Positions 28,453-32,421 of a stretch of DNA of 64,000 nt are shown piece after piece. Source of the DNA: Escherichia coli (lineage in GTDB: Bacteria > Pseudomonadota > Gammaproteobacteria > Enterobacterales > Enterobacteriaceae). The first letter of the stretch is position 1. The number at the start of each line of letters is the position of its first letter. Made by a program: the position numbers and the translations under genes. Under the pieces are notes generated by a model. The model was not told the origin of the DNA. It saw only the letters and a list, made by a program, of their open reading frames with translations, and ran no database searches. The stretch lies in assembly GCF_024502345.1 (NCBI RefSeq), contig NZ_JALDNN010000002.1; one strand, written 5' to 3'.

Positions 28453-29646
28453 GGAAGGTGCGAATAAGCGGGGAAATTCTTCTCGGCTGACTCAGTCATT
28501 TCATTTCTTCATGTTTGAGCCGTTTTTTCTCCCGTAAATGCCTTGAATCAGCCTATTTAGACCGTTTCTTCGCCATTTAAGGCGTTATTCCCAGTTTTTA
28601 GTGAGATCTCTCCCACTGACGTATCATTTGGTCCGCCCGAAACAGGTTGGCCAGCGTGAATAACATCGCCAGTTGGTTATCGTTTTTCAGCAGCCCCTTG
28701 TATCTGGCTTTCACGAAGCCGAACTGCCGCTTGATGATGCGAAACGGGTGCTCCACCCTGGCACGGATGCTGGCTTTCATGTATTCGATGTTGATGGCCG
28801 TTTTGTTCTTGCGCGGATGCTGCTTCAAGGTTTTTACCTTGCCGGGACGCTCGGCGATCAGCCAGTCCACATCCACCTCGGCCAGCTCCTCGCGCTGTGG
28901 CGCTCCTTGGTAGCCGGCATCGGCTGAGACAAATTGCTCCTCTCCATGAAGCAGATTACCCAGCTGATTGAGGTCATGCTCGTTGGCCGCGGTGGTGACC
29001 AGGCTGTGGGTCAGGCCACTCTTGGCATCGACACCAATGTGGGCCTTCATGCCAAAGTGCCACTGATTGCCTTTCTTGGTCTGATGCATCTCCGGAGCGC
29101 GTTGCTGCTCTTTGTTCTTGGTAGAGCAGGGTGCCTCAATGATGGTGGCTTCCACCAAAGTGCCTTGGGTCATCATGACGCCTGCTTCGGCCAGCCAGCG
29201 ATTGATGGTCTTGAACAATTGACGGGCCAGTTGATGCTGCTCGAGCAGGTGGCGGAAATTCATGATGGTGGTGCGATCCGGCAGGGCGCTATCCAGGGAT
29301 AATCGGGCAAACAGGCGCATGGAGGCGATTTCGTACAGGGCATCTTCCATGGCACCGTCGCTCAGGTTGTACCAATGCTGCATGCAGTGAATACGCAGCA
29401 TGGTCTCCAGCGGATAGGGCCGTCGGCCATTGCCCGCCTTGGGATAAAACGGCTCGATGACTTCCACCATGTTTTGCCATGGCAGAATCTGCTCCATGCG
29501 GGACAAGAAAATCTCTTTTCTGGTCTGACGGCGCTTACTGCTGAATTCACTGTCGGCGAAGGTGAGCTGATGACTCATGATGAATCCTTTTTCATGGCTC
29601 CAGATGACAAACATGATCTCATATCAGGGACTTGTTCGCACCTTCC
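28453..29646 (-). mobile_element. IS5 (canonical type) copy B with 4-bp TSD CTAA
   Basis: IRs ggaaggtgcgaataag.../...cttgttcgcaccttcc; ctaa at 28449-28452 and 29647-29650. Confidence 0.95.
28598..29578 (-). CDS. insH: IS5 transposase InsH (326 aa)
   Basis: [49 protein letters not shown]... Confidence 0.95.
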
Positions 29647-29739
29647 CTAATTGGTGTAAAAAAATGGGCGCAACAAAGCGCCCCAACAATAGAGTTTCAA
29701 ATTAATAAAAAGGTAATAAATAACATGAAGTTAAATTGA

Positions 29740-29764
29740 GAAGAGGCAATTTTATTGCCTCTTC
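29740..29764 (-). terminator. candidate intrinsic terminator downstream of the porin gene
   Basis: Perfect hairpin gaagaggcaat-ttt-attgcctcttc 3' of the minus-strand stop; a second IR (atatgcggg...cccgcatat) lies at about 29790-29830. Confidence 0.4.
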
Positions 29765-29839
29765 AAAGGTGGCATGAGGGTGCCACCTATATGCGGGCAG
29801 TGACATCACTCCCTTCCCGCATATTCTTACCTACCAAAA

Positions 29840-30952
29840 TTAGAATTGGTAGGTCATACCAACAGCAACGATGTTGTCGGTTGCAACGCCAGATTTTTTG
29901 GTAAAATCACTTTCATCGATCAGGTTGATCTTATAGTCAACGAAAGTGGACATATTCTTGTTAAAGTAATAAGTCGCGCCCACGTCGATGTATTCAACCA
30001 GATCCTGGTTACCGAACGCACCAATATTTTCACCGCGAGAGTGTAGGTAAGCGATGGACGGACGCAGGCCGAAATCAAACTGGTATTGAGCAACGGCTTC
30101 AAAGTTTTTCGCCTTGTTCGCGATATGGTCATCACCGAAGACTGTCATATTCTGAGTTTCAGAATAAGTTGTAGCCAGGTAAATGTTGTTTGCATCATAT
30201 TTCAGGCCCGTAGCCCATACTTCAGCAGTTTTACCAGAGGCATTCAGAGGGCTGGCTTTAGCATAGGATACCTGTCCATCAGTACGGTCAGATTTTGCAT
30301 AGGTTGCAGCAACGCCAAATCCTTCATAATCGTAAGTAGCTGACAGACCAAAGCCATCACCATTAGATTCAACTTCGTCGCGGCCTTTCCAGTTGTTCGC
30401 TTTTGCAGCACTATCATTTTTACCTTGATACTGCAAAGCAAAGTTCAGACCATCAACCAAGCCGAAGAAATTATTGTTACGATAGGTCGCGACGCCAGTA
30501 GCACGCTGGGTCATAAATACATCAGTCTGAGTCCAGGTATCTCCACCAAACTCCGGCAGCACGTCAGTCCAAGCGCCAACATCATAAGCTACACCGTAGT
30601 TGCGACCATAGTCGAGCGAACCATAATCGCCAAAGCGAAGCCCTGCAAACGCAAGACGAGTTTTATCTTTATCAGAACCTTCAGTTTCAGAACGGTTACC
30701 TTTAAATTCGTACTCCCACTGACCAAAACCGGTTAACTGGTCATTAATCTGAGTTTCACCTTTGAAACCCATACGAGCATAAGTTTTATCCCCGTCATCA
30801 CTAGCTGAAGAAGAGAAGTAATGCTTTGCATTAACTTTGCCGTACAGATCCAGTTTGTTACCGTCTTTGTTATAGATTTCTGCCGCTTGTGCAGACATTG
30901 CCATCAGGACTGATGCTGCAACCGCAGAAAGTGCCACTGTGATTTTTTTCAT
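29840..30952 (-). CDS. general outer-membrane porin (OmpC/OmpF/PhoE family)
   Basis: 370 aa; signal peptide [23 protein letters not shown]; [17 protein letters not shown]... and C-terminal ...VAVGMTYQF. Confidence 0.9.
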
Positions 30953-31149
30953 TTTTTTTCCTTTAGATTGAACTTTTCAACAGAAAAGAAGTCACTTAGG
31001 GAAGATGTTTATCTTTTTTTGATTTGCATTTCAAGTTTTTTAAATAAATATCGAGATATTTTCGTTATCATGATCACGAAAACACTGATGTAGCCCCCTG
31101 AAACACCGGACAGTAGCTGTATCTCCAGATAAGAGATAGGCTTGAATAT

Positions 31150-31545
31150 ATGTCTAACACTAACGCCAATTTTGAGATGACCGGGATCCTGTTAGGGCAA
31201 GAAGTCCGTAAACGTAAAACTCCTCAGGAGAAGATCGCCATTATCCAGCAGACGATGGAGCCGGGTATGAATGTCTCCCATGTCGCCCGCCTGCATGGTA
31301 TCCAGCCCAGCCTGCTGTTTAAGTGGAAGAAGCAATATCAGGAAGGCAGCCTCACCGCCGTTGCGGCTGGAGAGGAAGTCGTTCCTGCTTCTGAGCTTAC
31401 TGCTGCTCTGAAGCAGGTCCGGGAGCTTCAGCGCCTTCTGGGCAAGAAAACGATGGAAGTTGAGATCCTGAAAGAAGCCGTGGAGTACGGTCAGTCGCGA
31501 AAATGGATAGCGCACGCGCCCTTGTTGCCAAAGGACGGGGAATAG
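31150..31545 (+). CDS. IS3-family transposase OrfA (IS2-like)
   Basis: ...[50 protein letters not shown]... Confidence 0.9.
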
Positions 31546-32384
31546 CCATGGTCAGCCGGACCATGGGCGTGTCGCGTGCGCAACTGTCACTGCGGATTAA
31601 CCGTTCTGCCGACTGGCAGGACAGGCGCTGTAACCGGCGTAATGAAGAAGCAGACGCAGAAATACTGTCGGCTATCCTCAACATTATCAGCGATATGCCG
31701 AGTTATGGTTATCGACGCGTGTGGGGCATCCTGCGCAAGCAACGTCGCACAGAGGGACAGCCACCTGTGAATGCCAAACGGCTTTACAGGATAATGAGCG
31801 AGCATAACCTGTTGTTGTTGCATCACAAACCAGAGCGACCGAAGCGTGAACATAAGGGCAAGATAGCGGTGGCAGAAAGCGATATGCGCTGGTGTTCAGA
31901 TGGCTTCGAGTTCGGCTGCGACAACGGCGAAAAACTGCGGGTAACGTTCGCGCTGGACTGCTGCGACCGTGAGGCCATAGACTGGGCAGCAAGCACGGGA
32001 GGCTATGACAGTTCGACCGTGCAGGATGTGATGCTGAGGTCGGTGGAAAAGCGCTTCGGCGACAGGTTGCCCGACACAGCGGTGCAGTGGCTGACGGATA
32101 ACGGTTCAGCGTATACCGCGTATGAAACGCGGAGGTTCGCGAGAGAGCTGAATCTGGAGCCCTGCACAACAGCGGTGAGCAGCCCGCAGAGTAATGGCAT
32201 GGCCGAACGGTTCGTGAAAACGATGAAAGAAGACTATATCGCGTTCATGCCAAAACCGGATGTGAGAACAGCACTGCGAAACCTTGCAGTAGCGTTCACG
32301 CATTACAATGAAAACCACCCGCACAGCGCGCTGGGATATCACTCCCCGAGGGAATACCGGCGGCAGCGGACATCGTTAACTTAA
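31503..32384 (+). CDS. IS3-family transposase OrfB (IS2-like), -1 frame overlapping orfA
   Basis: 293 aa with DDE integrase motifs; overlaps orfA as expected for programmed frameshifting. Confidence 0.9.
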
Positions 32385-32421
32385 GATACAAAAGCTGTTC
32401 GGAGATGGAGGGTCAAGATCA

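Follow-up and report, generated by a model that had tools for sequence, protein, structure and literature searches.

The porin gene at positions 29840-30952 (minus strand) of the DNA analysed here, a 64,000-nucleotide (nt) stretch of Escherichia coli contig NZ_JALDNN010000002.1 that is called the window below and in which all coordinates are counted, is the P7 'nmpC' allele, of 370 amino acids, of a porin cassette carried by P1/P7-like phage-plasmids. Together with the sequences on either side of the gene, this segment is probably a self-contained 'porin-swap' unit, in which an IpeX-like RNA tail would lower the OmpF and OmpC of the host. The minus strand is the direction of porin transcription. 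Read in that direction, the cassette consists of a retained upstream region of 133 base pairs (bp) (30953-31085), examined by alignment of nine homologous upstream regions, of the porin gene, and of a 3' untranslated region (3'UTR; 29656-29842), defined by folding, a covariance model and covariation, which ends in an intrinsic terminator. Both the gene and its home in phage-plasmids have been annotated before and are mentioned in the literature, and the insertion sequences (IS) that flank it are incidental. The element itself is ordinary, being a known phage accessory gene; its IpeX-like tail is a modest new lead.

The open reading frame (ORF) of the porin is intact and full-length. Residues 29-370 cover profile positions 1-337 of the 337 in Pfam Porin_1 (E=3.5e-148); a Sec signal peptide, the loop-3 PEFGG motif and the C-terminal phenylalanine (...MTYQF) are all present, and residues 24-370 align to the solved structures of OmpC, OmpF, PhoE and OmpK36/37 (phmmer E 1e-109 to 1e-137). 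From this homology we infer a 16-strand trimeric diffusion pore. An earlier note, made from the sequence alone, had placed the gene in the OmpC/OmpF family and had proposed a comparison with chromosomal porins. The family assignment holds, but as an identity the label misses what the gene really is, the 'nmpC' cassette that phage P7 carries in the variable region RD-2 of the P1/P7 group. Indeed, the P7 gene ('NmpC precursor') is 96.4% identical in nucleotides and 96.5% in protein. A chromosomal gene of E. fergusonii, at the yedS-hchA locus, follows with 89.5% protein and 83% nucleotide identity, then the NmpC of prophage DLP12 in K-12 (its IS5 removed) and the Lc-type prophage porins, with 82% protein identity and a near-identical signal peptide, and Salmonella OmpD with 79%. 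The K-12 general porins are all more distant: 64.9% for PhoE, 62.7% for OmpC, 62.5% for OmpN and 60.2% for OmpF. Because identity reaches 79-82% in the one group and 60-65% in the other, the window porin is placed, on its alignments, in the NmpC/Lc/OmpD clade of general porins. Orthology with K-12 ompC, ompF, phoE or ompN was rejected on comparison with all four, and the E. fergusonii gene was rejected as a recent donor, its homology (83% in nucleotides) ending within about 60 bp of the ORF. The exact protein, WP_112921217.1, is annotated in the ATCC 98082 and TOK-001 plasmids; its RefSeq name is 'porin OmpC', and it scores 532.8 bits with the NCBIfam 'porin OmpC' subfamily model (cutoff 484), while not reaching the equivalog cutoffs for PhoE and OmpF.

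In phage P7 and in the plasmids pTB202 and pCFS3292-3, the porin gene sits between ssb and odaA/hxr, within the order darB-pro-lyz-ssb-[porin]-hxr-ddrB-darA-lydAB-cin. Phage P1 has isaA-IS1-isaB at this site instead, and the homology between P1 and P7 ends exactly at the ssb stop codon. The site is the variable-region hot spot 'RD-2' of Venturini et al. 2019 (PMC6906374), where the gene is named merely 'P7 porin precursor gene nmpC'; no functional characterisation of the P7/P1-like porin was found in the literature searched. A DNA search of PLSDB retrieved the same porin gene on about 109 E. coli plasmids at 93-100% identity and the P1-type lyz-ssb backbone in about 483 plasmids, so that roughly one fifth of P1-like phage-plasmids carry the porin. 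At 90% identity or more, it is found in about 113 of 5426 complete E. coli genomes. In its native setting the porin is an accessory gene of a temperate phage, the backbone of which is gone from the window. P7-type DNA is confined there to 28400-28452 and 29651-31085. The former piece is the left edge of the cassette, made of the last 9 nt of a P1-type ssb (CCATTTTGA) and the spacer behind it; it is 100% identical to the 3' end of ssb and the downstream DNA of about 95 P1-like plasmids, and has been severed from the remainder by IS5. The gene is not a standard chromosomal porin in its native context, which the earlier note had named as the finding that would refute its reading.

From the stop codon to the U-run, between the end of the porin gene and the intrinsic terminator, the 3'UTR measures 187 nt. 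The candidate terminator reported before is present (29658-29683, minus strand, with the stem GGGCGC/GCGCCC at 29666-29683 and U7 at 29658-29664), but the description was incomplete, since this hairpin is, by homology, the end of a longer structured RNA of the IpeX family. In 5' to 3' order on the RNA, the stop codon is followed by the stem-loops SL1 (29789-29824), SL2 (29767-29788) and SL3 (29740-29764), by an unpaired AU-rich segment and by the terminator. The minimum free energy is -66.9 kcal/mol (z=-6.0), and none of 200 shuffled sequences folds as well. The same four-hairpin layout, with differing stem sequences, is obtained for each homolog folded alone, namely the region downstream of nmpC in K-12, those of three lambdoid phages, of E. 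fergusonii and of a lambdoid tail-region porin, and the variants of 78% identity, whereas the core ompD genes of Salmonella and Citrobacter have a single terminator hairpin only. The K-12 homolog is IpeX, an experimentally defined repressor of OmpC and OmpF. A covariance model, built from the very sequences that it scores, gives 200 bits for the window, 163 bits for the K-12 ipeX locus (the 168 nt after the nmpC stop codon), 135 bits for E. fergusonii and 108 bits for the lambdoid tail-region type, the mobile homologs ranging overall from 108 to 200. An alignment of the UTRs with MAFFT left the helices out of register and was replaced by a realignment to the covariance model, which leans to structure by construction; as 24.5% of its cells are still unpaired, the individual folds were also relied on. 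In the model-fitted alignment, 19 base pairs are changed on both sides, and covariation is 0.298, compared with 0.171+-0.019 in shuffles (0 of 500 reach the observed value) and 0.07-0.17 in slid controls. An IpeX-family 3'UTR on a P1/P7-type cassette is not described in the literature searched.

Two further observations concern this RNA. A prophage of E. coli G1/2 (L007 2193-3540) carries a 387-amino-acid porin of 70% identity among lambdoid tail genes, between the genes for the tape-measure/tail protein and minor tail protein L, and this gene too has an IpeX-type 3'UTR (108 bits). Porin and RNA are thus found together at three or more different positions in phages. A search of Rfam with the UTR assigned no IpeX, MicF or MicC family. 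It returned a full-length match to GcvB (29658-29844, minus strand) that stays below threshold, with 30.5 bits (E=3.4e-4) where the gathering score is 42. An equal 30.5 bits is reached by the P7 copy (L005 8008-8194) and 23.7 bits by the E. fergusonii copy (L009 9106-9277), while nothing is matched in K-12 ipeX. The motif ACUUCAUGU (in GcvB: CACUUCCUGU) and a similar order of hairpins underlie the alignment, and the resemblance may be due to chance or convergence.

The part of the UTR that is best conserved is the unpaired segment, with a mean pairwise column identity of 0.81, compared with 0.59-0.61 in the stem-loops. Column identity and duplex predictions define within it a 'seed', ACUUCAUGUUAUUUAUUACCUUUU (29708-29731, minus strand), which contains UUAUUUAUUACC (29712-29723); 11 nt of the latter, UAUUUAUUACC, are also present in the 5' region of MicF. 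Duplexes with K-12 translation-start regions were predicted with RNAduplex, and the IpeX-family segments, but not the MicF and MicC controls, were also scored against 300 shuffles and 39 control start regions from the window. With ompF, the window/P7 type is predicted to form 22 pairs over -14 to +8 (-23.4 kcal/mol for a 40-nt segment); a 55-nt segment gives -26.2 kcal/mol, a value reached by none of the 300 shuffles (z=-3.8 against the 39 start regions). With ompC it would form 26 pairs over -19 to +11 (-20.8 kcal/mol). For K-12 IpeX the preference is reversed: 27 pairs with ompC over -31 to -3 (-26.7 kcal/mol, 0/300 shuffles, z=-5.2) and 19 pairs with ompF over -14 to +8 (-18.6 kcal/mol, 3/300 shuffles). 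The positive controls lie in the same range, MicF with ompF giving -27.4 kcal/mol (25 pairs, -16 to +9) and MicC with ompC giving -22.5 kcal/mol (18 pairs, -33 to -15). The unpaired segment of every variant is complementary to the ompC and ompF start regions, and phoE, ompN and the cassette's own mRNA give background energies with the window, K-12 and E. fergusonii types. This complementarity fits the phenotype reported for IpeX and suggests that direct pairing might underlie it, although the duplexes predicted here may not be the real mechanism. A MicF/MicC-like seed kept by every member of the IpeX family is not described in the literature searched. We put forward more tentatively, and conscious that it may well prove wrong, the wider idea that the P1/P7, lambdoid and IS-rich-island cassettes all carry an IpeX-family 3'UTR whose seed is a combined mimic of MicF and MicC, tuned by lineage to ompF in P7 and the window and to ompC in DLP12. 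In this connection, the unpaired segment of K-12 IpeX (K-12 loci L012 2365-2532 and L015 3122-3232) resembles the 5' seed of MicC, GUUAUAU...CCUUUAUU, with a MicF-like insert, AUUACC, and its predicted duplex with ompC (-31 to -3) overlaps the MicC site.

Upstream of the gene, promoter elements were deduced from conservation in the nine aligned leaders. All nine contain an invariant CTTGAAA, of which TTGAAA (31029-31034) is taken as a putative -35 element; a weak -10 candidate, TAAACA (31006-31011), lies 17 nt downstream of it. Other conserved leader motifs are AGTGAC (30991-30996) and AGTTCAA, and a Shine-Dalgarno sequence is found at about 30956-30960. The promoter of the cassette is thus putatively of a weak sigma-70 type (TTGAAA-17-TAAACA). 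P7, pTB202, both 78% variants and E. fergusonii have a CRP-type palindrome, TGTGA-N6-TCACA, in perfect form, its centre being about 72.5 nt upstream of the inferred start, as counted from the putative -35. The only minus-strand match of a promoter scan near the porin gene overlaps the start codon and was not used. The earlier claim that the gene has its own promoter region is right in that 133 bp of it are kept, and needs correction in that an IS2-like element interrupts the conserved upstream DNA.

Put together, these features suggest the following course of events. The cassette would be driven by a weak sigma-70 promoter, which relatives combine with an undamaged CRP-type site at about -72.5. 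Its mRNA would encode a secreted 16-strand trimeric porin and would end in the 187-nt IpeX-like 3'UTR, the unpaired segment of which would pair with the ribosome-binding and start-codon regions of host ompC and, at the MicF site, of host ompF. In this way the phage-type porin would take the place of the OmpF and OmpC of the carrier cell, and this swap would alter the receptors for porin-dependent phages and colicins as well as the permeability of the outer membrane.

The insertions of the two IS elements are incidental to the cassette. IS5 (28453-29646, minus strand; transposase ORF 28598-29614) is complete. It measures 1194 bp, is 96.3% identical to K-12 IS5B over its full length (1194/1195 bp) and has the ends GGAAGGTGCGAATAAG...CTTGTTCGCACCTTCC; the length of about 1195 bp, the terminal inverted repeats, the single DDE transposase and the 4-bp CTAA duplication are all as in canonical IS5. 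The two CTAA copies, read directly from the sequence, lie at 28449-28452 and 29647-29650, and the empty sites hold a single copy. In P7, pTB202 and pCFS3292-3 the target ...AACTTTACCTAATTGGTGT... is uninterrupted, the bases equivalent to 28452 and 29651 being contiguous. Because P7 and two P1-like plasmids possess this empty site, the simple insertion that the earlier note had read from the duplication is proven, and the DNA that it entered was pre-existing phage-plasmid DNA. The element lies 8-11 nt beyond the terminator and leaves the RNA intact; it is annotated as IS5 in the identical ATCC 98082 and TOK-001 plasmids. On the other side, the IS2-like element of the earlier note is a complete IS2-group (IS3 family) element of 1336 bp (31086-32421, plus strand), and its transcription runs in the direction opposite to that of the porin gene, away from it. 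Identity to K-12 IS2 is 69% in nucleotides, and that of OrfA to IS2 InsC is 68.7% in protein; Pfam HTH_Tnp_1 and rve are recorded on a protein identical to its own. Its genes orfA (31150-31545) and orfB (31503-32384) overlap at 31503-31545, and RefSeq annotates an IS3 family transposase with programmed frameshift. PLSDB contains 1557 copies that cover at least 80% of the element, the best being 100% identical over 1336 bp; such copies fix its ends (TGATG...GATCA).

The surroundings of the IS2-like element differ from one plasmid to another. In the window its flanks are unrelated and there is no target duplication, whereas in ATCC 98082 a direct repeat of 15 bp, TGATCACGAAAACAC (L001 17072-17086 and 18423-18437), stands on both sides of the element. 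These 15 bp are present once in the uninterrupted relatives L030, L033, L035 and L037, and the window keeps the left copy only (31071-31085). The target duplication of IS2 is 5 bp (PMC6906374), much shorter than the repeat in ATCC 98082. Since both flanks of the element are porin-upstream DNA in ATCC 98082, it was inserted into the leader region of the cassette. Its right flank in the window is the interior of an ISKpn26-like (IS5-family) half element (32422-33027, plus strand), truncated by the IS2-like element and 93% identical, in inverted orientation, to IS5 positions 1-601; no second copy of either half of this junction was found in the window. By comparison with the relatives, the junction is a later rearrangement that removed the remaining P1 genes, and the two IS elements are successive and independent hits on a phage-derived fragment, not parts of a transposon. 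Different lineages have had the AT-rich region upstream of the porin struck by different IS elements: IS1 at about -145, ISKpn26 at a CTAA at about -155, the IS2-like element at -133 and an IS6-family element with a transposase gene that ends about 184 bp upstream of the porin start (L002, TOK-001; L019, BS74R-D; L027, G5 plasmid; L028, pKTa005_3). The K-12 nmpC gene is itself interrupted by IS5, and in pSvP1 an IS10 lies inside the porin ORF (PMC6906374).

The various contexts in which the allele is found allow its history to be traced. In L033 the order is ddrB-hxr-porin-IS5-M48-hsdR, with no other IS; in L034, L036 and the ATCC 98082 plasmid, IS1 and the IS2-like element are added to this order on the upstream side of the porin; in TOK-001, IS1 replaces the IS2-like element and the outer flank of IS5 is different; and in L037, IS5 is truncated by IS26. 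The IS5 junction is the same in all checked copies of this allele, so that this insertion is ancestral to its lineage. As the comparison shows, IS5 was inserted just past the terminator, and the P1-derived ddrB-hxr-porin fragment was joined to hsdR-M48 DNA on non-phage plasmids; the IS2-like element then entered 133 bp upstream of the start codon, and in the window a further IS-associated rearrangement swapped all DNA beyond the IS2-like element for the ISKpn26 fragment. Only the bare cassette of about 1.5 kb survives in the window, on a plasmid rich in IS elements. The exact protein is indexed in 959 sample blocks, mostly on contigs of less than 2 kb, which is what a unique segment enclosed by repeated IS copies should give, and near-identical porins are named from Citrobacter and Klebsiella. 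The cassette is also carried by an IncFIC conjugative plasmid and by an E. coli chromosome, where it adjoins ISEc16, and two IS-rich islands in chromosomes have a 78%-identical variant, the homology of which extends from the terminator to at least about 130 bp upstream.

How mobile the gene is, and by what means, bears on two other explanations of the locus. The phrase 'mobile porin' of the earlier note stands insofar as the cassette occurs as a unit in many mobile contexts, but the two IS do not form a transposon around the gene. A composite transposon, made of IS5 and the IS2-like element or of IS5 and the inverted ISKpn26 fragment, is indeed suggested by the bracketing of the porin gene by IS elements, by the 93% identity and inverted arrangement of IS5 and the ISKpn26 fragment, and by the presence of the IS5-porin unit on several plasmids, including TOK-001 where the outer flank of IS5 differs. 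Yet the flanking IS are different elements; IS5 has a CTAA duplication of its own inside continuous P7-type DNA, the IS2-like element was inserted within the upstream region of the cassette, and the ISKpn26 copy is a truncated half. The unit as a whole has no duplication around it, no IS is present where the P7-derived DNA ends on the left (28399/28400), and the exact allele adjoins intact P1 genes ddrB-hxr without the IS2-like element in L033 and L030. An IS-made unit is thus contradicted by the junction sequences and very improbable. To the capture of a host chromosomal ompC (or ompK36) by a plasmid we attach practically no credence. RefSeq and NCBIfam both name the gene 'porin OmpC', but the NCBIfam model passed is of the 'subfamily' and not of the equivalog type; protein identity is 62.7% to K-12 OmpC, compared with 82% to NmpC and 96.5% to P7 NmpC; the neighbours are different, the micF/rcsD synteny being absent; and the nearest chromosomal relative is the E. 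fergusonii gene at the yedS-hchA locus (89.5% in protein).

Against an active cassette with an RNA that pairs with ompF and ompC stand several observations, on which two further explanations draw. According to one of them, the main rival, the cassette is a silent relic, structurally intact but transcriptionally inactive, that hitch-hikes on a decayed P1 fragment without affecting the cell. From TOK-001 through ATCC 98082 to the window, less and less P1-derived DNA is left, and the conserved DNA that runs on beyond -133 in relatives is lost or displaced here by the IS2-like element. The CRP-like site of the window allele, CGTGAtcatgaTAACG (31063-31078), 7 nt from that element, is degenerate, with mismatches at 3 of 10 positions, and taken alone is not statistically meaningful. 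No consensus promoter was detected, a scan returning 4 matches for 3.5 expected, nothing above chance. The nmpC gene of E. coli B(E) has been described as quiescent. In many E. coli strains, nmpC-type genes are described as unexpressed owing to an insertion element (PMC3333887). On the other hand, the ORF, signal peptide, leader motifs, -35, four hairpins, seed and terminator are all intact while the surrounding P1 DNA was lost; the exact protein occurs in the 959 sample blocks, and near-identical ones in Citrobacter and Klebsiella; and in unrelated islands the limits of related cassettes are much alike, reaching from the terminator to at least about -130. A silent relic is therefore, in our judgement, unlikely, though a serious contender. 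The other explanation sees in the 3'UTR mere stabilising or terminating hairpins without any role in trans, and in the complementarity to ompF and ompC a by-product of AU-richness. AU-rich segments pair easily with ribosome-binding regions, and the original IpeX study, by Castillo-Keller and colleagues in 2006, reportedly saw no complementarity between the RNA and ompC. According to a recent review, complementarity is not the sole basis of the mechanism of IpeX. For the window type, the score with ompC stands out only moderately (5/300 shuffles), and the tail-type variant also scores with nmpC (0/300), the window porin mRNA (2/300) and phoE (10/300). The model-fitted alignment pairs only 75.5% of cells, with helix registers that vary among variants; Rfam has no matching family apart from the sub-threshold GcvB; and core ompD manages with a single terminator, so that the hairpins are not needed for porin function. 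Yet the K-12 homolog is experimentally defined as a repressor of OmpC and OmpF, conservation is higher in the unpaired segment (0.81) than in the stems (0.61), the reverse of what a mere spacer would show, and the complementarity, tail-type excepted, is specific to ompF and ompC as judged against phoE, ompN, the own mRNA and the 39 controls, and is on a par with that of MicF and MicC at these sites. Hairpins without a role in trans are accordingly a quite improbable reading, and the porin-swap unit is the one that we retain.

Beyond the cassette, the window is a patchwork. The junction at 28399/28400, between DNA downstream of an M48 gene and the P7-type cassette, has no IS and lies within a few bases of the ssb stop codon, exactly where the homology of P1 and P7 ends (the left edge of RD-2). 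For the 290 bp at 28110-28399, no match was found outside ATCC 98082-type plasmids, nor any homology to the chromosomal hsdR-M48 island past the M48 stop codon. Positions 24619-28109 contain a gene for a type I restriction R subunit, annotated as N-terminally truncated in an identical plasmid, which is overlapped by the M48/SprT-like metallopeptidase gene that follows it; a chromosomal island of E. coli (L006) has a pair of about 77% identity to these two. Another gene for an outer-membrane channel, unrelated to the first (36460-37977, plus strand), encodes a 505-amino-acid ScrY-type carbohydrate porin within a sucrose operon (about 35356-41919: fructokinase, porin, phosphotransferase system IIBC, sucrose-6-phosphate hydrolase and a LacI-type regulator) that is common to many E. 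coli and Citrobacter plasmids. Five further copies or fragments of the IS5/ISKpn26 type (875-987, 1191-2386, 32422-33027, 43823-44805 and 47190-48385) are 93-96% identical to the IS5 at 28453, and the window also holds several IS26 and IS1. No PLSDB record covers 80% or more of either 25-kb stretch searched (5001-30000 and 30001-55000); the replicon is therefore a new mosaic of known pieces. On the E. fergusonii chromosome (L009 5956-9278), the 89.5% porin, which has both the CRP-type site in perfect form and a 3'UTR like IpeX, comes directly after a YedS-like porin gene, between yedR (drpB) and hchA, and the small RNA gene rseX is nearby (Rfam 68.6 bits); the cassette may have its ancestral home at this locus, or may have been domesticated there.

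One consequence concerns annotation: hundreds of plasmid and phage-plasmid records say 'porin OmpC' for a gene that is a phage-type NmpC porin with a predicted regulatory RNA of its own. Were the cassette active, a plasmid could re-equip its cell with another major porin while silencing OmpF and OmpC, which would bear on the interpretation of carbapenem and cephalosporin resistance through porin loss, and on the host range of porin-dependent phages, phage therapy and colicin sensitivity. If the proposal is true, a cassette of about 1.5 kb could alone, on conjugative plasmids of several genera, exchange the major porins of a cell, and the availability of phage and colicin receptors and the permeability to antibiotics would shift. 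IpeX, the action of which on ompC was described as unclear, would thereby gain a simple mechanism based on pairing, and the cassette would offer a compact natural system in which to study IpeX action.

Among known systems, the closest is nmpC of phage P7 (GenBank AF503408), which has an identical 3'UTR, the same leader and the same spacer to the ssb stop codon. The window differs from it in that its cassette lies outside any phage-plasmid backbone, with ssb cut to 9 nt; in having IS5 after the terminator and the IS2-like element at -133; and in the degenerate state of the TGTGA-N6-TCACA that is perfect in P7. The nmpC gene of the cryptic prophage DLP12 and lc of the lambdoid phage PA-2, with their 3' small RNA IpeX, have the same plan of porin gene, multi-hairpin 3'UTR and intrinsic terminator, and the UTRs are homologous. 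These genes are located in the lambdoid late region between Q and the lysis genes, and not in a P1-type RD-2; the stems of K-12 IpeX have diverged from those of the window UTR with compensatory changes, the window type being about 20 nt longer. DLP12 nmpC, like the window locus, has been struck by IS5, but in K-12 the element interrupts the nmpC ORF, whereas in the window it spares the whole cassette. The host general porins OmpC, OmpF, PhoE, OmpK36 and OmpK37 are of the same fold family, with full-length Porin_1, PEFGG and C-terminal phenylalanine, and are set apart by their 60-65% identity and by their signal peptide, genomic context and regulatory region. OmpD of Salmonella and Citrobacter belongs to the same clade (73-79% protein identity), but has a fixed chromosomal locus and a single-hairpin terminator without an IpeX-like UTR. 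As for the RNA, MicF and MicC are independent genes, divergent from ompC and ompN, and not 3'UTRs, and no overall homology with the IpeX-like UTR was detected; nevertheless, the ompF (-14 to +8) and ompC sites and the duplex strengths predicted for the window seed match theirs. UAUUUAUUACC is common to the window seed and MicF, while the K-12 IpeX seed shares GUUAUAU and CCUUUAUU with MicC. The window seed fits ompF best (-23 to -26 kcal/mol) and the K-12 type fits ompC best (-26.7 kcal/mol).

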